Shown piece by piece: positions 3,961 to 54,960 of a stretch of 64,000 bases of DNA (positions are counted from its first letter, which is position 1; the number at the start of each line of letters is the position of its first letter). Origin of the DNA: Nitrospirota bacterium (GTDB lineage Bacteria; Nitrospirota; Thermodesulfovibrionia; Thermodesulfovibrionales; UBA1546). The stretch lies in the NCBI GenBank assembly GCA_016212165.1, contig JACRGY010000106.1, positions 851-64,850 of the forward strand. Reading direction: 5' to 3'. The translations under genes were made by a program, and so were the position numbers. The notes under the pieces were generated by a model that made no database searches, was not told the origin of the DNA, and saw only the letters and a program-made list of their open reading frames with translations.

Positions 3961-3978
3961 AACCCATATGGAGGAAAA

Positions 3979-4421: not shown

Positions 4422-4487
4422 GGCTCAAGTCCCAAGGAGCCGGGCGCTCCCAGGAAAAAGTGCTAGCCTACAAAAAAGTTTAAGCCT

Positions 4488-4516: not shown

Positions 4517-4521
4517 TTCTC

Positions 4522-21157: not shown

Positions 21158-21173
21158 TGGCACTGGTATTGCA
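21158..21173 (+). promoter_or_regulatory. sigma54 (-24/-12) promoter of nifB
   Basis: TGGCACTGGTATTGCA, a perfect consensus match. Confidence 0.85.
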
Positions 21174-21205: not shown

Positions 21206-22090
21206 ATGTCAGTCATAGGCAAAAATAAAAATATAATCGAAAGCCACCCCTGTTTTTCAAAGGAGGCGCATCACAAGTTTGGAAGGATACATCTTCCCGT
21301 AGCCCCTGCATGCAATATCCAGTGCAGATACTGCATAAGGAAATATGATTGCGCAAATGAATCAAGGCCGGGAATTACAAGCAAGGTTATGTCTCCTTCG
21401 GATGCCCTGGACAGAGTCAGGGTCCTCCTTGAGAGGAACGACAATATCAGCGTCATAGGCATAGCAGGCCCCGGCGACCCGCTTGCAAACGAATCTACGT
21501 TTGAGGTCATGGCCGCCATACATAAAGAGTTTCCTGAGCTTACGCTGTGCGTATCTACAAATGGACTCTGTCTGCCCGAAAGACTGGAGGATCTGATGAG
21601 ATCGGGAGTCAGAAGCCTGACCATTACTATTAATGCCGTGACAGAAGAAATGGCGGAGAAAATTTATTCATGGGCTTTATATAAGGGCAGGCGTTATTCG
21701 GGGAGGGAGGCTGCAAAATATATTGTTTCCAATCAGTGGAGAGGCTTAAGGAATGCAATAGACGCCGGATTTGTAGTGAAAATCAATACCGTGTTCATCC
21801 CTGGCGTAAATAATGCGGAGATACCATTAATCGCATGGCGTGCAGGGGAGATAGGCGCCGACATCATGAACCTGATGCCCCTTATACCGCAGGCTGAATT
21901 TGAGAATTTCGACAGGCCTTCAAAACAGGCGATTGATAAAAAGCGGGATGAGTGCTCCGGATATATTCCCCAGATGACCCATTGCAGGCAATGCAGGGCA
22001 GATGCCTGTGGAGTCCTCGGCGAGGATAAGGATATGGAGCTTGAAATGCTGAATTCTCAAATAGGAGAGGAATACTGTGAGATGTTGTAA
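21206..22090 (+). CDS. nifB: radical-SAM NifB, minimal form without the NifX-like domain
   Basis: 294 aa. HPCF...HLPVAPACNIQCRYC radical-SAM motif and the C-terminal CRQCRADACG cluster. Confidence 0.9.
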   Translation: MSVIGKNKNIIESHPCFSKEAHHKFGRIHLPVAPACNIQCRYCIRKYDCANESRPGITSKVMSPSDALDRVRVLLERNDNISVIGIAGPGDPLANESTFEVMAAIHKEFPELTLCVSTNGLCLPERLEDLMRSGVRSLTITINAVTEEMAEKIYSWALYKGRRYSGREAAKYIVSNQWRGLRNAIDAGFVVKINTVFIPGVNNAEIPLIAWRAGEIGADIMNLMPLIPQAEFENFDRPSKQAIDKKRDECSGYIPQMTHCRQCRADACGVLGEDKDMELEMLNSQIGEEYCEML

Positions 22091-33667: not shown

Positions 33668-33988
33668 ATGAAAAAAAATTGCTGGGAATTCAAGAACTGC
33701 GGGAGGCACGATGGCGGCGAACATGTTCATGACCGTGGAATATGTCCTGCCACAACAGAAAGAAGCCTTAATGGCATTCATGGAGGCACTAATGCGGGAA
33801 GGGCATGCTGGGTTGTAGCAGGAACATTCTGTAAGGGAGAAGTTCAGGGGACTTTTGCGCAGAAATATAAAAATTGCAAACAATGCGATTTTTATCAGGA
33901 GGTAAGGAAAGAGGAGGGCGCAAAATTCACATTGTCGTCTGTCCTTTTGTTTAATCTTTTAACGAAGCTTAAAACTTTTAAATTATGA
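33668..33988 (+). CDS. free-standing 7-Cys module protein ('two-CW'-like), copy A
   Basis: 106 aa. NCWEFKNCG...ICP...GRACWVVAGTFCKGEVQGTFAQKYKNCKQCDFY. ATGA overlap with the downstream receiver gene. Confidence 0.85.
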   Translation: MKKNCWEFKNCGRHDGGEHVHDRGICPATTERSLNGIHGGTNAGRACWVVAGTFCKGEVQGTFAQKYKNCKQCDFYQEVRKEEGAKFTLSSVLLFNLLTKLKTFKL

Positions 33989-34356
33989 AAAAAATACTTA
34001 TTGTTGATGATGACGATACCATAAGAGAAGTGCTTTCTTATGCAGTGACGCAATTCGGCCATAAGGCATATAAGGCCAGTAACGGCGCTGAGGCAATAGA
34101 TATTCTAAAGGCAAACCCGGAAATCGAGATAGTTGTCCTTGACTTAAAAATGCCTGTAATGACCGGCCAGGAAATATGTCCCCTGATTAAGAACATGCGG
34201 CCCGATGTAGAGATAATCATATCAAGCGGCTTTGTAGACGAACCTGTGCTAAGAGAACTCACTGACAATGGCATTAAATATATTCTTCGAAAGCCTTATC
34301 CCTTGCCGGTTCTCGAAGAAATAATAAATAACCATTCCAGCCGTCAAGGGATGTAG
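33985..34356 (+). CDS. single-domain response regulator (CheY-like receiver)
   Basis: 123 aa. DDDD acidic pocket, VVLDLKMP phospho-acceptor Asp, conserved SS/K. Confidence 0.88.
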   Translation: MKKILIVDDDDTIREVLSYAVTQFGHKAYKASNGAEAIDILKANPEIEIVVLDLKMPVMTGQEICPLIKNMRPDVEIIISSGFVDEPVLRELTDNGIKYILRKPYPLPVLEEIINNHSSRQGM

Positions 34357-38165: not shown

Positions 38166-39836
38166 ATGAAGATTCTGAGGCTTGCTCTTGCGCAGATTAA
38201 TCCTACGGTTGGAGATATTGAGGGGAATGTCCTTAAAATCTGTGACTTCATATCAAAAGCAAAGAAACAAAATGCCGGAATAGTTGTATTTCCGGAGCTT
38301 GCCGTGACAGGTTATCCGCCTGAAGACCTTCTGCTGAAGCCGCAGTTTATAAGTGACAATCTTGATGCACTTAAAAAGGTCCAGCGGGAAACAGAAGGTA
38401 TTACCGCAGTTGTTGGTTTTGTTGACCCTGTTAGAAAGCTTAAATCGGATTTTCTTTCTATCGGGGTTGATAAAAAAGACGGCATCTATAATGCTGCGGC
38501 AATATTTCACGACAAGAAACTTGTTGATATTTACCATAAGGTGCATCTTCCAAATTACGGGGTTTTTGATGAATACAGATACTTCAGGGCAGGGACCAAA
38601 TCCCCTGTTTTCACAATTAACGGTATAAGCATGGGAGTCAATATATGCGAGGATATCTGGCATGAGGGGCCGGTTAAATCACAGGCTCAGGCCGGAGTTG
38701 AGATTATTATGAATATTAATGCCTCGCCATATCACATGGGAAAGCTTCATGAGAGAGAGGAGATGCTTTCCAAGAGGGCATCTGACAACAAGGTTTTGGT
38801 CGTGTATCTTAATACTGTCGGCGGCCAGGATGAGCTTGTTTTTGACGGAGGAAGCCTTATTATAGACAGAGCAGGCGAAATTATTGTCAGGGGCAGGCAG
38901 TTTGAAGAAGAGATTATCATTGCAGACGTTCGGATTGACGGCCCATCCCGGCCAGGTAAGAGATATCTTGCGCCAGCGGCCAGTTCATTAGGGGAGGAGG
39001 TTTATAAGGCGCTTGTTTTAGGAACCAGGGACTATGTCAATAAAAATGATTTCAGCAAGGTTGTTATAGGATTAAGCGGAGGGGTTGATTCTTCACTGGT
39101 AGCTGCAATTGCAGTTGATGCAATAGGCAAGAAAAATGTAAAGGGCGTGTTTATGCCGTCTCCATTTACGTCAAAAGAAAGCAGGGAAGATTCCTCTGCG
39201 CTGGCTAAAAATCTTGGGATCAAGATAATTGACGTTCCGATTAATGAAATATTTGAAAGCTATCGTAAGAATTTAAAGAGAGAATTTAAGGGATTCCATG
39301 AAGATATAACTGAAGAGAACCTTCAGGCACGAATCAGGGGCAATATCCTTATGTCATTTTCTAATAAATTCGGATGGCTTGTTTTGACAACAGGGAATAA
39401 ATCCGAGATGAGCGTCGGATATGCTACTCTTTATGGGGACATGGCAGGAGGATTCGCTGTTATAAAGGACGTGCCCAAGACACTTGTATATGAACTCTGC
39501 AAATGGAAGAATTCAAAAGAGGGCAGGGCAGTGATACCGGAAAGGGTATTATGGAAAGAACCTTCGGCAGAGCTTAAACCTGACCAGAAAGACACTGATA
39601 CTCTGCCTCCTTATCCTGTGCTTGACCCGATACTGAAGGCTTACATAGAAGATGACAAGAGCTTTGAAGATATATTGTCTTCAGGCTGTGAAAAAGAATG
39701 CGTGCAGAAGGTTATAAAAATGATTGATAAGAGCGAATATAAGAGAAGACAATCTCCGCCCGGCATAAAGATAACACCAAGGGCCTTTGGTAAAGACAGG
39801 AGATTCCCGATAACAAATAAATACAGGAGTTATTGA
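38166..39836 (+). CDS. nadE: glutamine-dependent NAD+ synthetase
   Basis: 556 aa. N-terminal CN-hydrolase domain plus the PP-loop GLSGGVDSS. Confidence 0.92.
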
Positions 39837-39841
39837 GGTTT

Positions 39842-41170
39842 ATGCAAATACTTATTATTGAAGATGACTCTGCCATACAGCTTGCCCTCAGGGTTTTTTT
39901 TGAGAAAAAAAACTATGAGGTCCTGCTTGCTGATACAGGGGCTAAAGGGTTGGATATCGCCGGGAAGAACCTGCCGGATATAGTCCTCCTCGACCTTCGA
40001 TTGCCTGATATTTATGGCCTGGAACTTCTAAAAAAAATTAAATCTGACCGTCCTGACTCAATGGTTTATATAATGACTGCCTTTGGTGAGGTTAAGGATG
40101 TAATAGACGCTATAAACCTCGGCGCAGAAAATTACTTCCAGAAACCTGTGGACCTCGAAGAATTGGGAGCAATAATTGACAGGAGCTCTGAAAAAATAAA
40201 ATTAAGACAAGAGTTAATGTTATGCAAAAGAGGGCTGTATCCCATTATAGGAAGAAGTAAGGCTGTGCAGGGACTCATTCATCTAATTAATCTTATGGCT
40301 GAAAACCATTCCACTACATTGCTGATACAGGGTGAAACAGGGACAGGCAAAGAACTTGTTGCAAGGAACATCCATTCATTAAGCATGAGGGGAGAAAATC
40401 CGTTTGTAGATATAAACTGTGCCTCTATCCCGGATAATATCCTTGAAAGTGAGATTTTTGGATATGAGGCCGGGGCTTTTACGGATGCAAGGTCGGCAAA
40501 AAAAGGACTTCTTGAGATTGCTGATAAGGGCACCCTGTTTCTTGATGAAATTGCAGAAATGCCCCTTGCCACTCAGGCAAAGTTTTTAAGAGTAATAGAG
40601 ACAAAAACATTCAGGCGGTTGGGTGGCACAAAGGACATAAAAGTTGACATGCGTATTATTGCTGCAACGAATAAAGATCTTGCAAATGCTGTGCATAACA
40701 ATTATTTTCGGGAAGACCTTTATTACAGGCTAAATGTTATGCCTATTACAATCCCTCCCTTAAGGGAACGCATTGAAGATATCCCCTTGCTGGCAGAGTT
40801 CTTCATAACAGAGATTGCAGAAAATATGGCCAAGAAAATAAAGCCGCTTGACAGAGAAGCTGTGGAAGCTCTCTGTTCTTATAGATGGCCGGGCAACATA
40901 AGAGAGTTGCGAAACGTGCTGGAGAGGGCCATGATTCTTTGCCGTGGGGAAGTACTGACAGTCCAGAACCTGGTATTGTCTGCTGGCTCAACCGAAGAAA
41001 ACGCTGCCGCACTTACTCTTAAAGATGTTGAGCGCCTGCATATCAAGGCAATCCTTTCATTGGCTGCCAATAACCGTACAAAGGCTGCAAATATGCTCGG
41101 AATTGCACGTTCAACTCTTAACGAAAAAATTAAAAGTTACAATATTCCCAAGTCCGATCCTGAAATTTGA
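39842..41170 (+). CDS. sigma54-dependent response regulator (REC-AAA+-HTH, NtrC/AtoC family)
   Basis: IIEDD...LLDLRLPD receiver, GETGTGKE, GYEAGAFTDA, C-terminal AANMLGIARSTLNEKIKSY HTH. An alternative TTG start lies at 39833. Confidence 0.9.
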   Translation: MQILIIEDDSAIQLALRVFFEKKNYEVLLADTGAKGLDIAGKNLPDIVLLDLRLPDIYGLELLKKIKSDRPDSMVYIMTAFGEVKDVIDAINLGAENYFQKPVDLEELGAIIDRSSEKIKLRQELMLCKRGLYPIIGRSKAVQGLIHLINLMAENHSTTLLIQGETGTGKELVARNIHSLSMRGENPFVDINCASIPDNILESEIFGYEAGAFTDARSAKKGLLEIADKGTLFLDEIAEMPLATQAKFLRVIETKTFRRLGGTKDIKVDMRIIAATNKDLANAVHNNYFREDLYYRLNVMPITIPPLRERIEDIPLLAEFFITEIAENMAKKIKPLDREAVEALCSYRWPGNIRELRNVLERAMILCRGEVLTVQNLVLSAGSTEENAAALTLKDVERLHIKAILSLAANNRTKAANMLGIARSTLNEKIKSYNIPKSDPEI

Positions 41171-41878: not shown

Positions 41879-41894
41879 TGGCACTTCTCTTGCA
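41879..41894 (+). promoter_or_regulatory. sigma54 (-24/-12) promoter of the che-type operon
   Basis: TGGCACTTCTCTTGCA, a perfect consensus match, 40 nt upstream of the GTG at 41934. Confidence 0.85.
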
Positions 41895-41933: not shown

Positions 41934-42317
41934 GTGAAAAGTATTTTAATAGTTGATGATGAGCCGGCAATATTAATGGCTCTGTCCCATCTTTTAAGCA
42001 ATGAAAACACGCTGGTATTAACAAGCAGCAGAATCGAGGAGGCGGAAGAGGCCCTGGACCGTTACAAATTTGATCTGGTTATTGCAGACATAAGACTAAG
42101 CGGAATAGAAGGGATGGAAGGGCTTGAGCTTCTAAGTTATGTGAAGGGCATAAGCCCTGAAACAAAGGTAATCATTATGACCGCCTATGGTTCTGATGAG
42201 ATAAAAGATTCAGCCTACCAAAGAGGGGCTTACCACTATTACGAAAAACCAATAGACATGGATGACCTGACAAAAAAAGTTGAGGATTGCGGCATCCCTG
42301 TAATGGTTCAAAAATAA
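41934..42317 (+). CDS. single-domain response regulator (GTG start)
   Basis: 127 aa. VDDEP and VIADIRLSG. GGAGG RBS. Confidence 0.85.
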   Translation: MKSILIVDDEPAILMALSHLLSNENTLVLTSSRIEEAEEALDRYKFDLVIADIRLSGIEGMEGLELLSYVKGISPETKVIIMTAYGSDEIKDSAYQRGAYHYYEKPIDMDDLTKKVEDCGIPVMVQK

Positions 42318-42329
42318 AAAGGAGGAGAA

Positions 42330-42752
42330 ATGTCCACCTTAAATTTAAATAAAGTCCTGATTGTAGACGATTCCAAGTTAATACATCAGATGTACAGGCT
42401 GGTTCTGATGAGGTATAAGGGCTGCGCGCTTTTAGATGCAATGAACGGGCTGGAAGCGCTTGATTTTTTATCAAGGGAAAACGGGATTGACCTTATACTT
42501 CTTGACATAAACATGCCTGTAATGAATGGCGTACAATTTATGGAAAAACTCAAAAAGGACAACCTTTACAGGCATATCCCTATAGTTGTTATAAGCACGG
42601 AAGGCAAGGAAGAAGATACCATAAGGGCCATGAAACTAGGAGCCTGGGGCTATATAGTGAAACCCTTTAAATCTGAGGCCCTTTATGAGCTTCTTGAAAA
42701 GGTAATTACTAAAAAATCATCGGCGCTGATGGAAACAGGAACCAGGCGTTAG
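42330..42752 (+). CDS. cheY: chemotaxis-type response regulator CheY
   Basis: 140 aa. VDDSK, LLDINMPVMNG and VKPF. Confidence 0.85.
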   Translation: MSTLNLNKVLIVDDSKLIHQMYRLVLMRYKGCALLDAMNGLEALDFLSRENGIDLILLDINMPVMNGVQFMEKLKKDNLYRHIPIVVISTEGKEEDTIRAMKLGAWGYIVKPFKSEALYELLEKVITKKSSALMETGTRR

Positions 42753-42761
42753 GTTTAAGCC

Positions 42762-44375
42762 ATGGATTACTCTGCTCTTATAAAGGACTATCTTGACGAC
42801 GCGAACGGACATCTGAATGTCTTTGACAGTGCGTTGTTGTCTTTGGAAAAGGGCGGATATAAAAAAGATATACTTATTAATATTCTGGGCGCCCTGCATA
42901 CACTTAAAGGTAATTCCGGCATGATGGGGTTCGAATCTTTAAAGACATACATACATCATGTGGAAGAGATTCTTAAAAAGGTTGACGATAACAGTATAGA
43001 GCTTGGACAGGCGCTAGACACTCTATTAGATAGCGCAAATGTGCTCAGGAATGCGCTGCAGTGGATAGGGAAGAACCCAACCTTTACCCCTGATCTTATG
43101 GAAAACATCCTTGCGCTCCAGAAAAAACTGGAGGGTTCAGGCGATGCTTCTGAAAACCAACGAGTAGACCTTGCATCATACCTGGGCACAAAGACAGATA
43201 CTATTAAGGTCGATTTTAAGCGGCTTGACAGCCTGCTTAATCTTGTTGGAGAACTTGTAATATTCAAAACAAGGCTTAACCAGATAGAGACGCAGGCAAA
43301 AGGCGCAATAAACGACAAGTCTTTCGCTAAAGATTTAAATGAAGGCCTCGAACTTATGGGTAAAACCATATCAGAACTCCAGGAAGGCATAATGAAGGCA
43401 AGGATGCTGCCCGTAAGTTATGTCTTTAATAAATTCCCAAGGATGATAAGAGACCTCGCAAAGTCACAGGGCAAGGAGATTCAACTGATATTTGAGGGTG
43501 AAGACACAGAACTTGACAAGACCGTGATAGACGAACTCGAAGAGCCGCTCCTGCATATAATCAGAAATGCAATAGACCATGGGATAGAGGTTTCTCGCGA
43601 CAGAGTGAATAAGGGAAAGAATCAAAAAGGAACGATTGTCCTGTCTGCCGCCCAGGAATCCAACTATGTAATCATAAAAGTAAAGGATGACGGCAGGGGA
43701 ATTGATTTTGACACGGTAAGAAGGGCAGGCATTGATAAAGGATTAATAAAATCTGAAGACTCCTTTGACAAGGACAACATACTTTCGTTGATTTTTTCTG
43801 CCGGGTTCACGACAAAACAGGAGGCCACGGATGTTTCCGGAAGAGGCATAGGCCTTGATGTTGTAAGCAAAAATATTTCCAAACTAAACGGACATGTTAT
43901 TGTGGAGAGTATTCATGAAAAAGGCACGACTTTCACATTAAAGCTTCCGTTAAATCTTGCGATAATTCCTGCCTTAATGGCAGAGACAGGCGGGGAGGTT
44001 TATGCCATACCAATGAGCGCTATTGACGAGAGTATTAAGGTAAGGGAAGAAGATATTCATATTATAAACAATCACGAAGTAATAAGATTCAGGGAAAGGG
44101 TCATACCAGTCGTCAGGCTTGCTGAATTTTTCGGTCTTAACAGAGAGAAACAGAAGAAATTCTATCTTGTAATAGTTAGCAAGGCGGAAAAACGTATTGC
44201 AATTGCCGTTGACAGGCTCAGGGGACAGCAGGAGATTGTGATTAAACCGCTTGATGATACATTTGGAAAGTCTTATGGCATAGCAGGCGCTTCCATACTC
44301 GGCGATGGAAGGATAGTGCTGATAATTGACGTTATGTCTTTTTATGAGAAAAAGGAGGTGTTGGCAGGTGTCTAA
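42762..44375 (+). CDS. cheA: chemotaxis histidine kinase CheA (Hpt-dimerisation-HATPase-CheW-like; no obvious P2)
   Basis: 537 aa. HTLKGNSG Hpt His, DDGRGID, GRGIGLDVV, and a C-terminal CheW-like domain. Confidence 0.92.
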   Translation: MDYSALIKDYLDDANGHLNVFDSALLSLEKGGYKKDILINILGALHTLKGNSGMMGFESLKTYIHHVEEILKKVDDNSIELGQALDTLLDSANVLRNALQWIGKNPTFTPDLMENILALQKKLEGSGDASENQRVDLASYLGTKTDTIKVDFKRLDSLLNLVGELVIFKTRLNQIETQAKGAINDKSFAKDLNEGLELMGKTISELQEGIMKARMLPVSYVFNKFPRMIRDLAKSQGKEIQLIFEGEDTELDKTVIDELEEPLLHIIRNAIDHGIEVSRDRVNKGKNQKGTIVLSAAQESNYVIIKVKDDGRGIDFDTVRRAGIDKGLIKSEDSFDKDNILSLIFSAGFTTKQEATDVSGRGIGLDVVSKNISKLNGHVIVESIHEKGTTFTLKLPLNLAIIPALMAETGGEVYAIPMSAIDESIKVREEDIHIINNHEVIRFRERVIPVVRLAEFFGLNREKQKKFYLVIVSKAEKRIAIAVDRLRGQQEIVIKPLDDTFGKSYGIAGASILGDGRIVLIIDVMSFYEKKEVLAGV

Positions 44376-44934
44376 GATATCTTTACCGCCTTCAGGCCTT
44401 GCAGAAGATTTTATAGGTGAGATAAGGGATGAACAGGCTGAGGTACAGCTTGTCACCTTTGCCCTTGGGGAACAGTATGGCGTTCCCATAAGCCAGATAC
44501 AGGAAATAATAAGGGTTGGTAATATCACAATGGTTCCAAATTCGCCTTCGTATATGGAAGGAGTTATAAACCTGAGGGGAAGAGTGCTGCCTGTCTTGAA
44601 CCTGAGAAAAAGGTTGCGGCTATCGGCAAAGGACACCGGCAAGATGTCGAGAATTATTGTTACAGAGGTTAACAATAAGACAATAGGATTGCTTGTGGAT
44701 TCAGTCTCGCATGTCATCAAGGTGGCATCGGATTCAGTGGAAGCTGCTCCTGAAGAAGTCCTTGAGATTGACACTGATTACATAACAGGCGTGTGCAAGA
44801 TTCAAGATAGCCTTGTAATATTAATTGACCTGGAAAAACTCTTAAAGAGAGAAAAGATTGAGATTAAAGAGGTTGGGATGGATTTATCTACGGCCCATGA
44901 ACAACGAGGAGGAAGCGATGGAAAAGAAAATTAA
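44368..44934 (+). CDS. cheW: coupling protein CheW (GTG start)
   Basis: GTG lies 8 nt after AAGGAGGTG and overlaps the cheA stop. LVTFALGEQYGVPISQIQEI and INLRGRVLPVLNLR. Confidence 0.88.
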   Translation: MSKISLPPSGLAEDFIGEIRDEQAEVQLVTFALGEQYGVPISQIQEIIRVGNITMVPNSPSYMEGVINLRGRVLPVLNLRKRLRLSAKDTGKMSRIIVTEVNNKTIGLLVDSVSHVIKVASDSVEAAPEEVLEIDTDYITGVCKIQDSLVILIDLEKLLKREKIEIKEVGMDLSTAHEQRGGSDGKEN

Positions 44935-45127
44935 CTGCTGGGAGTTTAAAAAATGCGGAAGGGATAAGACAGGAGACTGTCCGGCATATCCGAAAGGCGG
45001 AAGGGTGTGCTATTTGGTTGCAGGCACTTTGTGCGGGGGAAAGGTGCAGGGAACATATGCCCTTAAGATTGATAACTGCCGGTCATGTGATTTTTATAAG
45101 GGAGTGGTCATCGAAAAAAAATTTTGA
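44918..45127 (+). CDS. free-standing 7-Cys module protein ('two-CW'-like), copy B
   Basis: 69 aa. MEKKINCWEFKKCGRDKTGDCPAYPKGGRVCYLVAGTLCGGKVQGTYALKIDNCRSCDFY. GGAGGAAG RBS. Start overlaps cheW by 17 nt. Confidence 0.85.
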   Translation: MEKKINCWEFKKCGRDKTGDCPAYPKGGRVCYLVAGTLCGGKVQGTYALKIDNCRSCDFYKGVVIEKKF

Positions 45128-45193
45128 AAGAAAAGAGGCTATGATTTTTAAATTTTTTAACCTTAGTCTTAATCTATGTTTAAGGAGGAAAGC

Positions 45194-47680
45194 GTGAAGA
45201 TAAAAATCAGCACAAAACTTTTTATTGGTTTAGGGGTTATACTTGCCATTGTAATTGCAATGGCAGCCGGATTTTATTTGTCCATGAAAAATGTGGAAGA
45301 GGCAAAGTCAGAGGCCCTTCAGCTGTCAGAGCTGAACACATTTTTCTCGGAGCGAGTGGTGGACCATCTTAAATGGATGGACGGACTTTCTTCGGGTCTC
45401 TTTATTGAGGGGAAGGAATTCAAGGGAAAGCTTGATCCCGCTGAATGTAACCTTGGAAAATGGATGACGACATTTAAACCCTATTCAAAGGAGATAGAAG
45501 AGCCTTTTAAAGCATTAGATGCGCCCCACAAAAAACTACATGAATCGGCAAGCCGAATAATTTCAGAAACCAAAGCGGGGCACAAGGACAGGGCTCATGC
45601 AATATTTATAGCGGAGACAATTCCTGCAGTTGCATCTGTCCAGGGAAGCCTGAATAAGATGAAGGAAATCCTGAAAAAGGACATGGAAACAAAAGACATA
45701 CAATTGAAGGCTGCCATTAAAAGAGCTAATGCCATTACGTTCGGGCTTGCTGCGTTTGTATTGCTGTTTGGCATTATCGGAGGCACAATTTTTGTAAAGG
45801 GCATAAGTAACGGGATTACAGGGCCTATCGAAAAGATGATAAATTCAATGAAGAGGATTGCTGACGGGAACCTTACTGAAGAAGTGGCTGTTAAGGGCAG
45901 TGATGAGATAGTTCAGATGTCCGGAGAGTTCAATAAGGTTGTTAAGGGGCTTAAGGATACAATTACACACGCTGTCGCATCTGCCCTTAAGGTTTCCCTG
46001 GCTACAAATAATATAGTTTCAAACGCGCAGAAACTTTCCTTATCCTCACAGGAAGAAGCCTCTGCCACAGAAGAGACTACTTCTTCCATGGAGGAGATGG
46101 CAGCATCTATAGCACAGGTTGCAAAGAATACGGAGTCGCTTGCGACAAATGTTGATGAAACATCAGCTACAATAGGCGAGATGGCTGCCTCGATAGAGCA
46201 GGTAGGAAAAAGCGCTGACAACATGGCAGCTTCGGTTGAAGAAACATCCGCAACAATTGAAGAGATGCTTGCCTCTACCGACCAGACTGCAAAAAATACA
46301 GGTATGATGACCGAGGCAGTAAGCGAAACATCCCTGACTGTTGAAAATCTGCTCTCATCAATCGAGCAGATATCTAAAAATACAGAATCCTTAAAAAATA
46401 TGGTCACGGAGACTTCAAGCACCATTGAAGAGATGACAATGACTGTCAGAGAGGTTGCGGGAAGGATTGAGGGCGCCAATAAATTAACCCAGAAAGCTTT
46501 CGGTGAGGCCGAAGACGGCGGAAAGGCCATATACCAGAGCATAGAAAGCCTCCAGAATATCGGCAAAACAACAGAAAAAACCATGGGCATAATACAAAAC
46601 CTGGGCAAACGCTCGGAAGAAATAGGCTCGATTGTTGAAGTCATAGATGAGATTGCAGACCAGACAAACCTTCTGGCGCTTAACGCCGCAATAGAGGCAG
46701 CGCGGGCAGGGGATGCCGGAAGGGGCTTTGCCGTAGTTGCAGAGGAAATACGAAAGCTTGCAGAGCGTTCCATGGAGGCTACAAAAGAGATTGGGGGCGT
46801 TATAAAACAGGTACAGAGCGAAACTGAAACAGCGATAAAGGCAACAGAAGAAACTTACAGGGAAGGCAAGGGCGGTATTATGCTTGCGGGGCAGAGCAGG
46901 GATGCATTCACAGAAATAATAGCTTCAATAAAAGAAAGTTCGGAAGTAATGCATGGGATAGCCAAGTCTGCAGCTGAACTGAACAAGGCGATTGAGCAGA
47001 GCATGAAATATGTTGTGGATATGAATGCGTCTACTGATGATGTTACAAGCGCTGTAAAAGGGCAGGCGAATGGCGCAGGCAGCATCAGGCTTCTCCTTGA
47101 TAAGATGAACAAAATGGTACAGGAAGTAAATATAGCAGCCAGAGAACAATCCATTGGCGGAAAACAGATACGAGAGGCTGTAGAGCGCATGAAAAATATA
47201 GTCCATGAGGTAGGGGTTGCCGTTAAAGAGCAGGTGAGCGGGACCAAGCAGATAGTTCAATCAGCTGAGATAATGCATGAAATGGCACAGTCGGTAGCTA
47301 ATGCAACATCAGAACAGAAACTCGGAGGAGAGACTGTTGTGAGAGCAATGGAGGGCATAGGGCATATTGCATCAGAAAACCTTGAGCTGTCGAAGAAAAT
47401 GACCGAGACGTCCAATGAAACACTTTTCCAGATGGAAAACCTCCAATATGTAATAAGCAACTTTAAGATACATTCAAATGGAAATAAAAAATGCTGGGAT
47501 GTAATGAACTGTCCAGCAGGGTCAAGGCTTAAATGCCCTGCATATAATGCCCAGGAAGACCGGTGCTGGCTTATATCGGGAACGTGGTGCAAGGGCGCGC
47601 AGCAGGGTGACGCGCGGTCTAAATTGCGTAACTGCATGACCTGTGAGGCATTCAAGGTTATACAGGGAGTGGAAGTGTAA
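45194..47680 (+). CDS. methyl-accepting chemotaxis protein: CZB-like sensor between 2 TM, HAMP, long MA domain, C-terminal 7-Cys module (copy C)
   Basis: GTG follows AAGGAGG. HLKW...CNLGKW...H..LH zinc-binding-type motif at aa 60-125. Signalling hairpin [18 protein letters not shown]. Four EETS(A/S)..EEM..S repeats. Last 60 aa: [35 protein letters not shown]...CMTCEAF. Confidence 0.9.
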
Positions 47681-47770
47681 TTCAAAATTCAAAATGGTAA
47701 ATGGGTGAATAGGTTAAAAGGTGAATGGGTTTTTGCGATTTACCGATTCACCGAATAGCAATTCACCTGT
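47681..47770. repeat. inverted arrays of GGTGAAT / GATTCAC heptamers
   Basis: AATTCAAAATTCAAAATGGTAAATGGGTGAATAGG..GGTGAATGGG ... CGATTTACCGATTCACCGAATAGCAATTCACC. Shares CGATTCAC with the nifN-internal repeat. Confidence 0.75.
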
Positions 47771-47783
47771 AAGGGAAAATGAT

Positions 47784-48917
47784 ATGCAGGAAATCCAGGA
47801 AATATTAAATAAATTAAAGGACAATAACTGGTGGGTAAGAAAAAACACCATTGAAAATCTTCTTGCCTATCCCGAAGATTCGTACCTTTCTGTCCTGGAG
47901 GAATGGCTGAGAAATGGTGACGACGCCCTCTTAAGGAATGCTGCCATGGAGGCATTCAGGTCTCTTGGAGGAAGGGCTGTCGGGTCCCTTATTTCATTGC
48001 TTAAAGACAAGGATCCGGATGTCAGGATTTTTGCCGCAAATGTGCTTGGAGATATAGGAGACGCAGAAGCATTGTCAGCGCTTATACCGGCGCTTGCTGA
48101 CCCTGATGTTAATGTTAAAATAGCATCAGCTGAAGCGCTCGGCAAAATAGGCAGCGAAAAGGCGGTAACGGCATTGGCAAAACTCATAGGCAGCACAACA
48201 TGGGTCACGATGGCAGCTATTGAGGCTATTGGTGAGATAGGCGGCGATAAAGCCTTAACTGTGCTTTATAAGTGCCTTGAAAAAGAAGAATATCACGGCA
48301 TGGCATTTGCTGCAATTGAAAGGGCAGGGAACCAGCATTTCATAAGACATTTAACGCCATTTGTTGATAAGGAAACCGGCCTCAGGGAACTGGCGCTGAA
48401 GGCAATAGTTACTATTGCCGACAGAGAGGGAACAAAGCCAATGCCTTCATATTTCACAAGCCTTATTCCCCTGCTTCTGGACCTGCAGCATTCTGCCCGG
48501 CCCGAATTCAAAAAGGCCGCCTTTATAGCATTGTGCTGGTCGGAAGACATGAGTGGTTTTGAATATTTCATTGATGCCCTGAACGATGAAGAGCTTCAGG
48601 AATATGCCATAAACGGATTGTTTTCGCTCGGGAAAAGGGCAGTTCCCGGCATAATTGACGCTCTTAAAAAACAGGGCGCCAACAGGGTTATTCTGGCAAA
48701 GGTTCTCTCCATGCTTGGAGAAAATACCGCTCTGCTGCGGTTTGCGGATGATGATGATGCAGAGGTCCGCACAGAGGTTGCTCTTGCCATTGGCAACTTG
48801 AAAACTCAGAAAGCCATTGAAACGCTGCTGATGCTTGAACAGGATGCCATAGACGAGGTTAGGGCAGCAGCTCAGCTTTCGTTAAAGAATAAAAAGGACA
48901 CCGGTAATCTAACATGA
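47784..48917 (+). CDS. HEAT-repeat (PBS-lyase-like) protein
   Basis: About 10 repeats of the type D.D..VR..AA.ALG.IG...A...L. The ATG at 47784 is chosen because upstream codons lie in the heptamer repeat. Confidence 0.85.
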   Translation: MQEIQEILNKLKDNNWWVRKNTIENLLAYPEDSYLSVLEEWLRNGDDALLRNAAMEAFRSLGGRAVGSLISLLKDKDPDVRIFAANVLGDIGDAEALSALIPALADPDVNVKIASAEALGKIGSEKAVTALAKLIGSTTWVTMAAIEAIGEIGGDKALTVLYKCLEKEEYHGMAFAAIERAGNQHFIRHLTPFVDKETGLRELALKAIVTIADREGTKPMPSYFTSLIPLLLDLQHSARPEFKKAAFIALCWSEDMSGFEYFIDALNDEELQEYAINGLFSLGKRAVPGIIDALKKQGANRVILAKVLSMLGENTALLRFADDDDAEVRTEVALAIGNLKTQKAIETLLMLEQDAIDEVRAAAQLSLKNKKDTGNLT

Positions 48918-49762
48918 CATTGTCTAAAAAAGATCTGATGTCAGAAGAGGAATTTGCTCTTCTGAGGGATCTGATAAATAGAGAGTTTGGGATACAATTA
49001 AGAGGTGACAAGAGGCTGACTTTTCATACAAAAGTATCTCACAGGCTGAATATCCTTGGCCTCAAATCCTACAGGGATTACTATGAGTTTATTATTTCAG
49101 ATTCTTCAAGAGAAGAATTGTTTAGGCTTGCCTCTCACATAACAAATAACGAAACCTATTTTTTCAGGGAAAAAATGCAGCTCGATGTATTTTCTAATCT
49201 GCTTAAGGAGATTAAAAAAGAGAGACAGAAAAAGAACCAGAATATTTTAAAAATCCTGTCTCTTGCCTGTTCAAGCGGAGAAGAGGCATATACCCTGAAT
49301 ATCCTGGCCCAGGAAAGCGGGCTTTTTATCTGGGACTGGGATATAAGGATAATAGGCATTGATATAGACAAAAATGCGCTTAAAAAGGCAAAAGGGGCTT
49401 CCTATACAAAGAACTCATTCAGGCTGAACGGGAATATAGACATTGTTAATAAATATTTCACAGCCGAAGGAGACCATTACAGCTTAAGAAAAATTTTTAC
49501 AAAAAATGTTGATTTCAGGCATGGGAACCTGCTGGACATCAATTCTTTCACTGACATCAATGATATAGATGTTGTCTTTTGCAGGAACGTGCTGATATAC
49601 ATGAATGACAGCGCTATCAGCAGGATTATAAAAAATCTTTATAACAGCATGACAGATTCAGGGTATCTTTTTATAGGTTCGGCAGAGAGCCTTATTCAAC
49701 GCACAGACCTTTTTTCCCCGGAATATAATAATGGAATAATTGTTTACAGAAAGAATGTCTGA
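48914..49762 (+). CDS. cheR: chemotaxis protein methyltransferase CheR
   Basis: 282 aa. TYFFRE, and the SAM-binding LSLACSSGEEAYTL and VFCRNVLIY. Confidence 0.9.
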   Translation: MTLSKKDLMSEEEFALLRDLINREFGIQLRGDKRLTFHTKVSHRLNILGLKSYRDYYEFIISDSSREELFRLASHITNNETYFFREKMQLDVFSNLLKEIKKERQKKNQNILKILSLACSSGEEAYTLNILAQESGLFIWDWDIRIIGIDIDKNALKKAKGASYTKNSFRLNGNIDIVNKYFTAEGDHYSLRKIFTKNVDFRHGNLLDINSFTDINDIDVVFCRNVLIYMNDSAISRIIKNLYNSMTDSGYLFIGSAESLIQRTDLFSPEYNNGIIVYRKNV

Positions 49763-50768
49763 AATCAGGGTCCTCATAGTAGACGATTCTCCGTTTATCC
49801 GAAAAGCGCTTCTCAGGATTTTTGAATCTGAACCTTCGATTGCAGTTGTGGGTGTTGCCAGGAACGGGAAAGAGGCCATAGGAAAGGTTATAGAGCTGGA
49901 GCCTGATGTTATAACCCTTGATATAATGATGCCGGAGATGGATGGCATCGAGACTCTTAAGATTATAATGGAGACAAAACCTACCCCTGTGCTGATGCTT
50001 TCCCAGTATACCCATGAAGGCACAGAACTCACCTTAAATGCCCTTGAATTTGGGGCCATGGATTTTGTCGATAAATCAACAACCGGATTGATGGATTTTT
50101 TTGGGCTTGCTAAAGAAATAATATCAAAAGTTAAGGCTATAACAGGCCAAAGACCATTAAGGATTGCTTCTTCATCAATGGCGCTTCAGGACTATAAAGG
50201 CAGGGGCATTATAGATGCAGTTGCAATTGGAACTTCAACAGGAGGGCCGCCTGCACTCCAGGTGCTTTTGCCAAAATTTCCCAAGGATATAAGCTTTGGA
50301 GTTCTCATAGTCCAGCATATGCCGCAGGGCTTTACAGGGCCGCTCGCTAAACGGCTCGATACTATGTGTCAAATCCATATTAAAGAGGCAGAGGAGGGGG
50401 ACAAGATTGAACCCGGCGTTGCCCTTATTGCGCCTTCAGGCCTCCATATGAAGGTCAGGAAAAATCAAAAACTTATAAGGCTCGACATGGAACCTATAAA
50501 CACAGCCCACAGGCCATCTGTGGATGTGCTTTTTCAGACAGTGGCAGACAACTATGGTAATCGTTCAATCGGTGTAATTCTCACAGGCATGGGGTCTGAC
50601 GGGGCAAAAGGCATAAGGCTGATGAAAGAGCAGGGCGCTGTTACCCTTGCTCAGGATGAGGAAACATCAACGATATTCGGAATGCCAAAGGTTGCGATAG
50701 AAAGCGGGGTTATTGATAAGGTAGTGCCCATAACCTCAATGGCAGAAGAGATAATGAAGATGGCATAA
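49755..50768 (+). CDS. cheB: protein-glutamate methylesterase CheB
   Basis: REC (VDDSPFIR, TLDIMMPEMDG) plus an esterase domain (GTSTGGPPAL, HMP, GMGSDGA). Confidence 0.9.
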   Translation: MSEIRVLIVDDSPFIRKALLRIFESEPSIAVVGVARNGKEAIGKVIELEPDVITLDIMMPEMDGIETLKIIMETKPTPVLMLSQYTHEGTELTLNALEFGAMDFVDKSTTGLMDFFGLAKEIISKVKAITGQRPLRIASSSMALQDYKGRGIIDAVAIGTSTGGPPALQVLLPKFPKDISFGVLIVQHMPQGFTGPLAKRLDTMCQIHIKEAEEGDKIEPGVALIAPSGLHMKVRKNQKLIRLDMEPINTAHRPSVDVLFQTVADNYGNRSIGVILTGMGSDGAKGIRLMKEQGAVTLAQDEETSTIFGMPKVAIESGVIDKVVPITSMAEEIMKMA

Positions 50769-50769
50769 G

Positions 50770-50826
50770 GAGGTAAAGGTAAAGAGATGCTAAAGAGTTT
50801 TCTCAACCTCAACCTTAACCTCAGCC
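50770..50826. repeat. inverted heptamer repeat between convergent cheB and the kinase gene (bidirectional terminator-like)
   Basis: GGAGGTAAAGGTAAAGAG ... CTCAACCTCAACCTTAACCTCAGCC. AACCTTA family. Confidence 0.6.
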
Positions 50827-53673
50827 TTCTTGAAGACTAATTATTACTGACGTCCCTGAACCTTCGGTACTCTGTATCTCCATGCTGCCGTTATGGTCTT
50901 CGATTATTTTTTTGCATATTGAAAGGCCAAGCCCCGTGCCTTCTTTTCTTGTTGTAAAAAACGGGTCCCATATCTTGTCTATTATATCTTTTCTGATCCC
51001 AATGCCATTGTCCTTTGTCGTTATTACCACCCTGCCTTTTTTCTGCTCAGCAGTTATATCTACGTTCCTGCTCCGTGCATTCAGGGCATTATCTATAAGG
51101 TTCAGGAAAACCTGGGTCAGTTTATCTGTATCTGCCATGATTGTAACTGAAGGGTTAATTATTAAATTCACGGCCACATCCTCTTTCTTTGCCTTAACAT
51201 AATGCTTTATCTTTTCCATAAGGACATTTAAATCCACTTCTCTGATATCCAATTTTGACGGCCTGCTGTACAGGAGAAGTTCCTCAATCAGGTTCTTCAG
51301 TCTGTATATCTCCTTAAGCATTGCCTGCAGAAGGGCACGGTGTTGTTCGGATTTAATTTCCCTCTCTAATATCTGCACTATGGAGGATATGCCAAAAAGC
51401 GGATTCCTTATTTCGTGGGCAACCCCGGCAACAACCTTTCCTATTGCCTCAAGATGCTGCCTCTTCCTTGCTTCTGCCTGAAGTTTCTTTATCTCGGTAA
51501 GATCACGGAATACCACAACAGTTCCTGCCTGTTTATCATCCGTACGGCTCAACGGAGAATTGTTGAAACCTACAGGAATGACATCTGTCCCGTCTGAGAG
51601 CTCTATCTCTCTGTTCAGGTTAGAATTAATTATGAGAAAATCAGATGCCTGCGGCAAGGCGTCTGTAAGTTTTTTACCGATAACATAGTCTTTGATTTTC
51701 AATATCCCGAAACCGATAGGGTTTAACTTTATGATACGGTTTTCCGAATCAAGAACCATTATTCCCGTGGCCATGTTGGTGAGAACCACCCCTGAAAAAT
51801 CCCTTTCAGTTAGGAGCTCATTGTATAGCTGTGCTGTATTAATGGCAGCGGCAGCCTGGCTTGCAAAGAGCCGAATAACAGCCTTTTCAGCATCTGTCAT
51901 AAAGAAATCTTTTTTCTTGAAAAGTGTCAGGCAACCGAATATTGAATTTTTCAGCTTCAACGGGACTGAGGCCATGTACAAAAAACCATAGCTTTGGATT
52001 AAACCGCTGAGACATTCAACATCCTGAATTCTAACTGTTTCCAAGGGGCGTTCCTCCTCAATGGATCTTCCGATAAAAGATTCTTCAACGGGAAGAGAAT
52101 CAGGGATGATAGCTTTTTCAATATTGGAGACGGTTTTGAGGTGCAATCTTCCGTCTTTTTTCCCCATTAGCCACAGTATTGCGGCGTCCATATTTGCAAA
52201 AACCGTAGCAGATGAGACAATGGATTGCGTAAGTTTATTCAGGTCCAGGTCCCGAATCGTTTCAACTGATATATCCTGAAGCCTGATAAGGCTGGCTATG
52301 TCTTCTTTTTTTCCCTCAATCAGCTTTTGGTTTTCAATGGCAGATGCAATTTCAGAGCCAAGAATTTCAATGGAATGAAGCGAAGTCTTTGTTATATCTT
52401 CTGTTTTGCCGGCTATTAAAACTCCTATAACAGGGAAGACATTACAGTGAAGACACCCGTAGATTTTTTCTTTGCCGGCCACTGCCTGAGGGCTTCTGCA
52501 GAGCGTGCCGCTTATCAGCCAGCACCTCTCGTCAGTACTATTAAATGCAGGGCAGTTTTCGTATGTGCAGAGATTGACTTCCCTGCATCTCTTCCTTTGA
52601 TGAGAAAGAATAGGAATTATAACGACGTTGCCAAATGCATCCGGCGCCCCAATATCCTGCGACTTTTTTATCGCGGACCTTGCTTCCCTTATGGTTTTTA
52701 TAAAGGGGTGTTCGCTGGCAAGTGATATTTCAATAGAGCAGACATCATCATCAATGCCTTTTTTGAACTCCTGCAAAAGAAGTCCTGTTTCCTTGTCTAT
52801 AAGGCATAGGGCCGAATATCCATAGCCCATCTCGTCTGTTATGGCATCCAAAAACTGCCCTACAATCTCTTTCAGTGTTAGATCGCCTTTAAATACCTCA
52901 GATGAAAGTTCAGCAATTGCCCTTAGCTCTTTAGTCCTTTGCCTTATGGCGTTCTCAAGGCCTATATGTGATTTCTCTATGCTGTCTGCCATTTCATTAA
53001 AGCGGGAAGCAAGCATGCCAATCTCATCATTCCTCTTTAAGTGTATTCTGTATTTAAGCTTTCGGGGCCTCAGCACGTCTGTTCCTTGATGGAGGGTATC
53101 CAGGGGATTTAGAATCATCTTTCTTATAACAATGATTAAAAATATTTCACTGATTAAACCTATGATAACGGCAAAAAATATCAGGCGCTTGGCTGTTTCG
53201 TTAATCTCTGCATGAGCCTTTCTCAGTGAGGTTTTTATAACAAGCATCCCCCTTGTCTTATCCCCGGAGGAATGACAAGCATGGCACCTGCGCTCATTTT
53301 TAAGAGGCTTATAGAAAAAGAGGGCCTCGTCGGATTTTATATGGGCTTCCTTCCGGGCAGCGAATATTTCTTCAGGCACCGCAATATCAGTGTTAAAAAC
53401 CGGCTGCCCGTCCATGCCTACGACCCCTATTTCCACATCCCCAAGCTGACGGAACTCCTGAATATGCTGAGCAACAATCAGAGGATCTTTTTCCATCATT
53501 GCAGATGTGAGATGTTTTGTAAGCATTTCTGCAGTCTGTAAAGATTTCTCCGAATATATGCCGATTATTATGGTTTTTTCCCGTTCGAGTATCAGGTATG
53601 TGAGAAGTCCAAAAAAGAAGACTACGCCGGCCAGGAGTATCCAGAAAGATTTTTCACTAAGACTTTTTTTGAT
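50821..53673 (-). CDS. sensor histidine kinase: TM, periplasmic CxxCH domain, TM, HAMP, GAF (with inserted 7-Cys module, copy D), GAF, PAS, HisKA, HATPase
   Basis: The track ORF starts at the ATG at 53526. However, 49 in-frame stop-free codons upstream encode IKKSLSEKSFWILLAGVVFFFGLLTYLIL (TM1) after the AAGGGGAAGGG RBS, which implies an ATC (or other non-canonical) start at 53673. CHACH lies at 53272-53286. H-box AHEIRNPL. DNGIGI/GTGLGLSI. Confidence 0.85.
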   Translation of the reverse strand: MKKSLSEKSFWILLAGVVFFFGLLTYLILEREKTIIIGIYSEKSLQTAEMLTKHLTSAMMEKDPLIVAQHIQEFRQLGDVEIGVVGMDGQPVFNTDIAVPEEIFAARKEAHIKSDEALFFYKPLKNERRCHACHSSGDKTRGMLVIKTSLRKAHAEINETAKRLIFFAVIIGLISEIFLIIVIRKMILNPLDTLHQGTDVLRPRKLKYRIHLKRNDEIGMLASRFNEMADSIEKSHIGLENAIRQRTKELRAIAELSSEVFKGDLTLKEIVGQFLDAITDEMGYGYSALCLIDKETGLLLQEFKKGIDDDVCSIEISLASEHPFIKTIREARSAIKKSQDIGAPDAFGNVVIIPILSHQRKRCREVNLCTYENCPAFNSTDERCWLISGTLCRSPQAVAGKEKIYGCLHCNVFPVIGVLIAGKTEDITKTSLHSIEILGSEIASAIENQKLIEGKKEDIASLIRLQDISVETIRDLDLNKLTQSIVSSATVFANMDAAILWLMGKKDGRLHLKTVSNIEKAIIPDSLPVEESFIGRSIEEERPLETVRIQDVECLSGLIQSYGFLYMASVPLKLKNSIFGCLTLFKKKDFFMTDAEKAVIRLFASQAAAAINTAQLYNELLTERDFSGVVLTNMATGIMVLDSENRIIKLNPIGFGILKIKDYVIGKKLTDALPQASDFLIINSNLNREIELSDGTDVIPVGFNNSPLSRTDDKQAGTVVVFRDLTEIKKLQAEARKRQHLEAIGKVVAGVAHEIRNPLFGISSIVQILEREIKSEQHRALLQAMLKEIYRLKNLIEELLLYSRPSKLDIREVDLNVLMEKIKHYVKAKKEDVAVNLIINPSVTIMADTDKLTQVFLNLIDNALNARSRNVDITAEQKKGRVVITTKDNGIGIRKDIIDKIWDPFFTTRKEGTGLGLSICKKIIEDHNGSMEIQSTEGSGTSVIISLQEG

Positions 53674-53835
53674 GTTCCCTTCCCCTTATAAAACGATAAA
53701 ATAACTTTTTATGTTTATAATAAAACTTTATTGCCGGAAAACTCAACAAAGGACTTTTATGTTTCATGATAAAATTATAATAATACACAGGGGATAGGAT
53801 GGATTTATAATAAAATAACAAAATGAGAGGTGACA

Positions 53836-54960
53836 ATGTCCAAGGTCTACTTTGCTCCGGCAAGGATAAAAAAATGGAAATATGCAGACAGCATGCCAGG
53901 CAAGCTCGAGAAGTTGCTGAATGAGATAAATCTCCTGAGCTTTTTTGAAAAAGATGAATGGACAGCTGTAAAGACACATTTTGGCTCTGAGGGCGCTCAC
54001 AGGATTGTGAGGCCTATATTCTTAAGAAAGGTTGTTGATGCCTTAAAAGGTGTAAGCGCCAAGCCTTTTGTTACAGATACGGTCCGCATAAAAGGGCTTG
54101 ATTATCTCGAAGTTGCAAATCAAAACGGGATAAATCATCTTTCCGTTGGAGCGCCCGTTGTTCTGGCTGACGGGCTTTATGGGAATGACAATATAATGGT
54201 AAGGGCCGGCGATATCCTTGGTGAAATTGCAATCGCAAGTGTAATACATGATGTGCCTGCCATGTTTGTGTGTTCACATGTTAAAGGGCATATTCAGGCA
54301 GGTTATGGCGGTGCAATTAAAAATGTCGCGATGGGAGGGATCAGCTCAAGCCACAGAAAATGCGGTTGGAAATGCGGAAGGGGCGCCTTACATACAATAG
54401 GCGAGGGCAAGTTAATATGGGATGAGGCAAAGTGTGAGCTCTGTTATCAATGTGAAGAGATTTGCCCGCTTGAGTGTATAAAATTTGAAAATGAACTTTT
54501 TGCCTACAGCGAAGATAAATGCTGGAGGTGTGGAAGATGCACAAGGGTCTGTCCGGCAGGCGCGCTTGCAATGCCGGGCGATGACGAAAGGTTTATGCAT
54601 GCCCTGGCAGAGGCTGCGAAGGCAGTTATCGGCACATTTCAGCCAGGCAAAATTATATATATAAATTTTCTTACTGAGATACAGCCTGAGTGCGACTGTA
54701 TGCCGTCTGCTGATGTGCCGGTTATACAGGATCAGGGGATACTTGTTTCCGATGATATTGTTTCAATAGAGCAGGCTACAGTAGATATGCTTTCAAATAA
54801 AAAACCCCTTCCTCAATCTGCCATGGACGAATATCAATCTGAACCAGACGATATACTTTTTTGCCTTTCCAGAAAGCCATACAAACTACAGATAGATGCA
54901 GCTGAAAGACTTGGATTAGGCAGCAAACAATATAAACTTGTCGAGATACAGGAATTTTAA
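53836..54960 (+). CDS. DUF362-domain protein with an inserted 2x[4Fe-4S] ferredoxin domain
   Basis: MSKVYFAP...VKTHFGS...FVTDT pattern (DUF362). CELCYQCEEICP and CWRCGRCTRVCP. GAGAGGTG RBS. Confidence 0.8.
   Translation: MSKVYFAPARIKKWKYADSMPGKLEKLLNEINLLSFFEKDEWTAVKTHFGSEGAHRIVRPIFLRKVVDALKGVSAKPFVTDTVRIKGLDYLEVANQNGINHLSVGAPVVLADGLYGNDNIMVRAGDILGEIAIASVIHDVPAMFVCSHVKGHIQAGYGGAIKNVAMGGISSSHRKCGWKCGRGALHTIGEGKLIWDEAKCELCYQCEEICPLECIKFENELFAYSEDKCWRCGRCTRVCPAGALAMPGDDERFMHALAEAAKAVIGTFQPGKIIYINFLTEIQPECDCMPSADVPVIQDQGILVSDDIVSIEQATVDMLSNKKPLPQSAMDEYQSEPDDILFCLSRKPYKLQIDAAERLGLGSKQYKLVEIQEF

Follow-up and report, generated by a model that had tools for sequence, protein, structure and literature searches.

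A sensor histidine kinase gene of a Thermodesulfovibrionales (Nitrospirota) bacterium probably begins translation at an AUC codon, and its relatives have probably kept an AUH codon (AUA, AUC or AUU) at this position for a long time. The gene lies on the minus strand of the 64,000-nucleotide stretch of contig JACRGY010000106.1 that we analyzed, hereafter the window. Read from the ATC at 53671..53673, it spans 50821..53673, stop codon included, and encodes 950 amino acids. In the explanation that we regard as probable when taken as a whole, the product is an inner-membrane sensor kinase that carries a haem-c sensor domain outside the membrane and a cysteine-rich domain within a cytoplasmic GAF fold. 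Known counterparts exist for every part: the haem-c PAS-like sensor, GAF, the two-CW domain, the HisKA kinase and AUH initiation. What is new is the clade-wide AUH start in a sensor kinase, the two-CW domain nested in a GAF domain and the conserved bracketing of a sigma54 che operon. The window's assembly comprises 2.79 Mb in 202 contigs, and the nearest relatives of the source genome are metagenome-assembled genomes (MAGs) of Thermodesulfovibrionales/Nitrospirota. All features of the kinase gene given below are on the minus strand.

The initiation codon of the kinase and its orthologues

The first in-frame ATG of the kinase is at 53526, and the frame stays open for 53 further codons upstream, to a TAA at 53688-53686. 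This open stretch encodes GEGN-IKKSLSEKSFWILLAGVVFFFGLLTYLILEREK. It includes the first transmembrane helix (TM1; FWILLAGVVFFFGLLTYLIL, 53587..53646), which hydropathy places at residues 14-33 of the stop-bounded translation of the kinase frame (P0001, used here to number the transmembrane segments). Because TM1 lies upstream of ATG 53526, initiation at that codon would remove it. No ATG, GTG or TTG is present between the in-frame TAA and the end of TM1, and none in the 49 codons from ATC 53673. A purine-rich, Shine-Dalgarno-like block (AAGGGGAAGGG, 53677..53687) overlaps the TAA, and its G-rich equivalent is kept in orthologues. A sequence-only reading of this DNA had already argued that a start at 53526 deletes TM1 and that, with no ATG, GTG or TTG upstream, a start at ATC 53673 (or at an ATA or CTG) is implied. 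Both statements agree with the hydropathy profile and with the orthologues described below.

We compared this region across a DNA sample of 24 species-representative genomes and one metagenome contig (L030). The scan for metagenome orthologues used two patterns, one of which was a generic HAMP motif, and 78 of its 80 loci were unrelated HAMP proteins; only L030 was usable. Eighteen loci of the window's clade, the window included, were readable at the start. The codon aligned with ATC 53673 is ATC in seven, ATT in seven and ATA in two, that is, an ATH codon in 16 of 18 loci (the window, L001-L011, L015, L016, L023 and L030, the last with ATC). None of these 16 has a canonical start before TM1. 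Each has an in-frame stop one to four codons upstream of the ATH, and the interval between stop and ATT is just two codons (Gly-Asn) in L006 and L008. A purine-rich block is also kept ahead of the ATH codon, for example aaggggaagggaac, aaggggacggtagc, agggtgaggtaac and tagggagagggaac. As for the other two loci, L012 has ATG exactly at the ATC-equivalent position (NMKSLNKK), and L013 has ATG four codons upstream of the aligned start. Three database proteins (P0016, P0022 and P0028) likewise start with MKS.. at the aligned position. Comparison of orthologue N-termini, a check proposed with the sequence-only reading, thus supports the ATC start.

The codons downstream of the ATC evolve as coding sequence. 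Across codons 2-49, TM1 among them, the ratio of nonsynonymous to synonymous differences (pN/pS) is 0.15-0.6, with pS values of up to 0.6-0.88. A ratio this low at high pS argues that the TM1 region is translated, and the pattern of substitution indicates that the 48 codons after the ATC are under purifying selection.

These data bear on translation from ATG 53526, which would give a 901-amino-acid protein lacking TM1 and leave the upstream open frame as an untranslated leader. This ATG is the first canonical start in the frame, and gene callers picked its equivalent in the closest database homologues (P0002, P0003 and P0010). However, the 48 upstream codons have changed mostly at synonymous sites and keep their protein sequence, and they make a typical signal-anchor helix. 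The first canonical start also shifts among orthologues, falling inside TM1, after TM1 or at residue 54-63, and without TM1 the CxxCH domain that follows could not reach the periplasmic haem-attachment machinery. We consider a start at 53526 very improbable.

Less credible still is that the missing start reflects a sequencing error in the A7 run directly after the ATC (53670-53664), or a programmed frameshift from an upstream, ATG-initiated frame (MKHKSPLL...HQKKS, then a stop). An overlapping upstream frame with an ATG does exist in the window, L001 and L015. Against this, the same startless layout recurs in 16 independent assemblies, which excludes sequencing error, and the A7 run is missing from nine of the 16 loci (L006-L011, L016, L023 and L030). 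In L002, L003, L004, L006, L010, L011 and L016 the alternative frame closes a single base short of the site, and no start is found upstream in the remaining frame. The shift needed is +1, whereas A-AAA-AAG supports -1. We therefore rejected frameshifting from an upstream frame at the A7 run as a general mechanism, since in most orthologues the other frames either are closed or lack a start, and the run is absent from nine of 16 loci.

In a maximum-likelihood tree, the clade (support 100/99) has 15 rows, of which 13 carry ATH; both ATG starts are at tips. The sister clade (five rows) has canonical ATG or GTG starts, with one ambiguous row (L022). We infer that an AUH start is the ancestral state of the whole orthologue clade and that ATG was derived twice at tips.

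If the AUH codon is the true start, the gene is often miscalled. A protein collection yielded about 95 homologues, all from Nitrospirota-type MAGs. The called N-terminus lies after TM1 in 32 and inside TM1 in about 23; three carry long spurious extensions, and in about 18 a Met stands on or immediately ahead of the conserved N-terminus (MGNIKSLS.., MKSLNKK..). Of 94 database homologues, some 55 are thus called without TM1 or with half of it, and most database copies are N-terminally truncated by a miscalled start. Such miscalls invert the predicted topology and hide the periplasmic site of the CxxCH domain, and the family is well suited to testing gene callers that do not consider AUH starts.

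In our preferred reading, AUC 53673 would be read by initiator tRNA after the strong purine-rich Shine-Dalgarno-like block. The near-cognate codon would probably hold the kinase at low copy number and make its synthesis sensitive to IF3, as for infC. In E. coli, initiation from AUA, AUC and AUU reaches about 1-2% of the AUG level, and the only confirmed AUH-start genes there are infC and pcnB (bioRxiv 10.1101/063800). The kinase resembles E. coli infC and pcnB (AUU starts, with IF3 discrimination) in having a near-cognate AUH after a good Shine-Dalgarno sequence, conserved across orthologues. It differs in being a sensor kinase without a link to the translation machinery, in a codon that varies among AUC, AUU and AUA, and in an IF3 dependence that is putative. 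If a deep clade has indeed kept an AUH start in a signalling gene rather than in infC, this would be a rare, testable case of a start codon setting expression or regulation.

A regulatory start must be weighed against the other AUH starts of the same genome. Its infC has no ATG, GTG or TTG before IF3_N, and the likely start is an ATA after GGAGGTGAAGGT (contig C102:4819-4870; about 1453-1500 of locus L029). A non-canonical infC start is the classical IF3-autoregulated arrangement. With ATA as its likely start, infC suggests that at least one essential gene of the organism depends on AUH initiation. A crude genome-wide screen, confined to this genome, found a coding-like startless leader together with a stop, a Shine-Dalgarno sequence and ATH in thrS and in genes for an SDR protein, an HflX-like GTPase, a radical-SAM protein and a glycosyltransferase (stop-Shine-Dalgarno-ATT/ATA genes on contigs C102 (plus strand, from 2879), C176, C112 (from 25778), C66 and C80). 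AUH initiation may be unusually frequent here, a minor but recurrent habit of the lineage. The hybrid kinase on contig C140 was considered as a second startless kinase and rejected, as it has TTG at its second codon.

These observations temper the claim that the kinase start is specially regulatory, and they count against our reading, as does the low kinase output expected because AUH initiates at only about 1-2% of AUG in E. coli. The start may instead reflect tolerance by the lineage, real but without regulatory meaning, with the codon drifting neutrally among ATC, ATT and ATA. The same signature in thrS, infC and the four other genes (SDR, HflX-like GTPase, radical-SAM gene and glycosyltransferase) fits neutral drift, as does the presence of all three ATH codons in the kinase clade. 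However, ATG is one third-position change away, yet it stands at that position in one of 17 loci, with two reversions at tips. If the four bases were equally likely this would have a binomial P of about 0.05, for loci that are not phylogenetically independent. We regard neutral drift as a substantial possibility, though not the probable one.

The remaining features of the start region are consistent with accessible initiation. An Rfam scan of the kinase leader returned no family, and the start region folds less stably than its shuffles (z +1.5). The region thus appears to lack a riboswitch or a structured leader, which fits a start that is open to ribosomes. Two promoter-like sites lie upstream, TTGAGT-18-TATTAT at 53717..53746 and a second at 53836-53807, both consensus matches only. 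The divergent gene upstream (53830-54960, plus strand) encodes a DUF362 protein with 4Fe-4S ferredoxin motifs, and this DUF362/Fer4 gene adjoins the kinase only in its closest relatives (L002, L003 and L015). Two orthologous loci have peculiarities of their own. In L023 (2980-5780, a contig of Nitrospirae bacterium GWC2_42_7) the orthologue is split into overlapping frames at 2980-3498 and 3384-5780, by a frameshift or an assembly error. The kinase of L004 (QLUP01000144.1, filed as 'Candidatus Lithacetigena glycinireducens') is nearly identical to that of the Nitrospiraceae MAG of L003 (tip branches 0.034 and 0.017), and the L004 contig is probably mis-binned.

A periplasmic sensor domain of the haem-c family

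Hydropathy of the whole kinase gives only two transmembrane segments, TM1 and TM2 (53125..53184, residues 168-187). Between them, Pfam identifies a PAS-like haem-c sensor domain (PF21563, Mcp40H-20_sensor) at 53224..53517 (residues 57-154), scoring 33.3 bits over a gathering cut-off of 27. Its placement between two transmembrane helices holds only if the ATC start is used. phmmer matched the domain to PDB 3b47 (GSU0582; E 4.8e-7) and also to 3b42 (GSU0935). In these alignments KPLKNERRCHACH of the kinase corresponds to VPLANEVRCQSCH of the Geobacter sensor, and AMMEKD to LMMAGD.

The domain carries a CHACH haem-attachment motif (53272..53286, residues 134-138), the sole C..CH in the protein, within the 134-amino-acid loop between TM1 and TM2. 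In a 15-sequence alignment C134, C137, H138 and M63 are invariant. M63 belongs to a Met62-Met63 pair (53497..53502) that aligns with the Met-Met of GSU0582, in the same region as the Geobacter Met60, and is a candidate distal haem ligand. The sequence-only reading had pointed to a single CHACH in this loop and proposed a haem-c type periplasmic sensor. The Pfam score above cut-off, the direct match to 3b47 and the invariance of the motif support this proposal.

The Geobacter sensors GSU0582 and GSU0935 hold a c-type haem in a PAS-like swapped dimer, in which the distal ligand Met60 binds on reduction and is displaced by carbon monoxide (CO) or nitric oxide (NO); their midpoint potentials are -156 and -251 mV (PMC8396549). 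The assignment of the kinase's periplasmic domain to this family is well supported by the alignments. As in these methyl-accepting chemotaxis proteins (MCPs), the domain stands between two transmembrane helices followed by HAMP (52975..53127 in the kinase, from the Pfam search), has a single CxxCH near its C-terminal end in a PL-NE-RC--CH context, and has an N-terminal-helix Met-Met aligned with the Met60 region. In contrast to them, the output here is a GAF-GAF-PAS histidine kinase rather than an MCP signalling domain, and the host belongs to Nitrospirota, not Geobacter. The kinase therefore joins a characterized haem-c sensor family to a kinase output.

We infer that haem c is covalently attached at CHACH. 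The cytochrome-c assembly family PF01578 has five matches in four open frames of this genome. TM1 would act as a signal anchor that exports the PAS-like domain with its one covalent haem c, and the conserved Met would be a switchable distal ligand. The domain would then report periplasmic redox potential or NO/CO, as in GSU0582 and GSU0935.

A two-CW domain within a predicted GAF fold

From the membrane, the signal would travel via TM2 and HAMP into the cytoplasmic domains, two GAF and one PAS. Pfam detects only the second GAF domain (51841..52248, residues 480-615) and gives no GAF match over the first (52291..52938), which was found by its fold. We built an AlphaFold2 model of residues 240-470 with 21 orthologues from the fetched loci (mean predicted local distance difference test score (pLDDT) 72.9; core 75-88). 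The model contains a helix, strands at 290-297, 302-309, 338-341 and 353-360, a 58-residue insert, a strand at 419-427 and a long C-terminal helix. In a Foldseek search every one of its top 50 PDB matches was a GAF domain (among them 6oap, 3trc, 3oov and 4g3k), with target TM-scores of at most 0.80.

The insert (residues 361-418, 52432..52605) holds seven Cys, encoded at 52587-52444, and separates strand NVVIIPIL (353-360) from strand VIGVLIAGK (419-427) in the model. The sequence-only reading held that a Cys module interrupts a strand pair of the first GAF domain and suggested a structure prediction of the domain with its insertion; the prediction returned the GAF core with confidence, and the insert between the strands at low confidence. 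All seven Cys are invariant in the 15-sequence alignment and in a separate 21-sequence orthologue alignment, and no other part of the GAF1 region is as conserved as the insert (CPA..RCW..T.CRSP..V.G..KI.GC.HC..FP). The startless N-terminus, the CxxCH motif and the Cys module thus all recur in relatives, which shows that none of them arose by chance.

Several comparisons relate the insert to the two-CW domain (NCBIfam NF045718). In tblastn it matches the C-terminal two-CW domain of the MCP encoded nearby (E 1.8e-11). With hhalign, it aligns to a 110-sequence two-CW alignment at 97.6% probability (E 3.7e-12), all seven Cys in register. The match to the kinase in a genome-wide profile search scored 25.8 bits. 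Compared with NF045718 proteins, the insert has the seven Cys, the CP motif and the second CW in register, and paralogues in the same genome score above the cut-off. The kinase copy differs in being nested inside GAF rather than free-standing or terminal, in its score below the curated cut-off, and in its first CW motif, which is CR. This first motif is CW in orthologues L001, L010 and L015, and the second CW is invariant. On the strength of the alignments and the model, we regard the Cys module as a divergent member of the two-CW family, set between the final two strands of the predicted GAF domain. Some of the evidence speaks against this assignment or against any firm view of its fold and role: with hmmscan the insert reached NF045718 at E 1.8e-6 and 28.2 bits, below the curated cut-off of 35; AlphaFold2 models it at a pLDDT of about 50; and a Foldseek search with the model of a free-standing two-CW protein (44918-45127, plus strand; small helical fold, pLDDT 79.6) found no PDB relative, the best E-value being 6.9. 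Judged from that model, two-CW may be a new fold.

Most likely the insert provides a cytoplasmic input, either binding a metal or Fe-S cluster or working through thiols, and would alter GAF conformation. DosS and DosT, which hold haem b in GAF-A, offer a parallel in that a histidine-kinase GAF serves as a cytoplasmic redox or gas input; unlike in DosS and DosT, the putative cofactor would here be held by the inserted Cys-rich domain, which is distinct from the GAF pocket. Either the haem domain or the Cys module, or both, may sense redox state.

Alternatively, the insert could be a purely structural zinc knuckle of the GAF domain. The seven Cys and a nearly invariant His (CLHC) make eight ligands, which fits two Zn sites, and the lack of a PDB relative for the two-CW fold also leaves room for a structural role. 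However, two-CW makes up the only domain of small proteins whose genes are translationally coupled to those of CheY-like receivers, and it also occurs C-terminally in an MCP and, in another kinase of the same genome, between PAS and HisKA. Such a distribution is that of an input module, and the insert is also better conserved than the rest of the GAF1 region. We think a purely structural role unlikely.

The sensory reading of the insert is the one that we carry forward, and the distribution of two-CW at large is in keeping with it. The genome holds 12 two-CW matches, nine in small free-standing proteins and three in large signalling proteins. In the large proteins the domain occupies a different position each time: the MCP has it at its C-terminus, the C140 hybrid kinase between PAS and HisKA, and the kinase studied here inside GAF. 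More than 2,130 small two-CW homologues are found in MAGs of anaerobes. A literature search for 'two-CW domain' returned no papers under that name. A sensory role with a cysteine-ligated cofactor would be the most economical reading of this distribution.

The window also contains a gene for a free-standing 106-amino-acid two-CW protein that shares an ATGA overlap with a CheY-like receiver gene (33668-34356, plus strand). This arrangement suggests that two-CW/receiver pairs are a minimal signalling unit. The C140 hybrid kinase (C140:26200-29550, plus strand; 1117 amino acids, TTG start), with two-CW between a PAS/coiled-coil region and HisKA, represents a third architecture.

The che operon and a candidate partner regulator

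After its second GAF domain the kinase has a PAS-like region (51481..51810, residues 626-735) and a transmitter (50830..51441; HisKA 51441-51259, HATPase_c 51132-50830). The PAS-like bounds are approximate, set by the starts of AtoS/WalK/NtrB-type NCBIfam matches (612-636) and by the start of HisKA. The sole Pfam PAS match in the kinase, PAS_GdpP, is weak (14.1 bits, cut-off 27). Pfam E-values are 1.7e-13 for HisKA and 2.4e-26 for HATPase_c, with VAHEIRNPL as the H-box. The transmitter is most similar to ZraS (PDB 9jfj) and AtoS. Because all equivalog scores are far below their cut-offs, the kinase is not an orthologue of any named kinase. ZraS and AtoS are kinases of sigma54 activators, and the output here would be a transmitter of their HisKA-HATPase type.

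As the sequence-only reading had observed, the kinase is convergent with a che operon, whose end faces it (41934-50768, plus strand). The operon encodes two CheY-like proteins, CheA, CheW, a small two-CW protein, an MCP (CZB, HAMP and two-CW), a HEAT-repeat protein, CheR and CheB. This convergence is more than a local arrangement: the CheB/CheR/HEAT neighbourhood was present in 17 of 17 orthologous loci checked, down to 39% identity. Ahead of the operon is a perfect sigma54 -24/-12 element (TGGCACTTCTCTTGCA, 41879..41894, plus strand). On its far side a gene at 39833..41170 (plus strand) encodes an NtrC-type sigma54 activator response regulator, a candidate partner of the kinase. In four of five other genomes the strand opposite the kinase carries a clear orthologue of this regulator at a distance of 9-15 kb, and these orthologues share 57-67% identity, against at most 46% for paralogues. 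No cognate regulator was found adjoining the kinase.

We propose that the kinase acts on the NtrC-type regulator, which in turn would activate the sigma54 che operon, because of the synteny, the sigma54 promoter and the ZraS/AtoS-like transmitter. The synteny is observed and the phosphotransfer is predicted. That the pairing is built on synteny counts against it, and the regulator is best described as the most likely partner. The system resembles ZraS/AtoS/NtrB-type kinases with sigma54 activators in its transmitter and in having an NtrC-type regulator and a sigma54 promoter in the same conserved cluster. It departs from them in that kinase and regulator are not adjacent and bracket the che operon.

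A broader reading joins these elements. In it, two-CW would be a new class of cysteine-ligated metal/Fe-S redox sensor of anaerobes that plugs into chemotaxis-like and two-component pathways, cytoplasmic redox state would gate the haem-c signal, and the AUH start would be actively kept, tying the kinase level to IF3 and growth state; together they would control the sigma54 che-like operon. We offer this combination tentatively, as it is rather doubtful that all of its parts hold at once. Two-CW nonetheless gains a structural context within GAF and conserved partners in the sigma54 activator and the che operon, which makes its function experimentally approachable.

The element ahead of the che operon is one of two perfect sigma54 elements in the window. 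The second (TGGCACTGGTATTGCA, 21158-21173, plus strand) lies about 30 nucleotides upstream of an open reading frame at 21206-22090.

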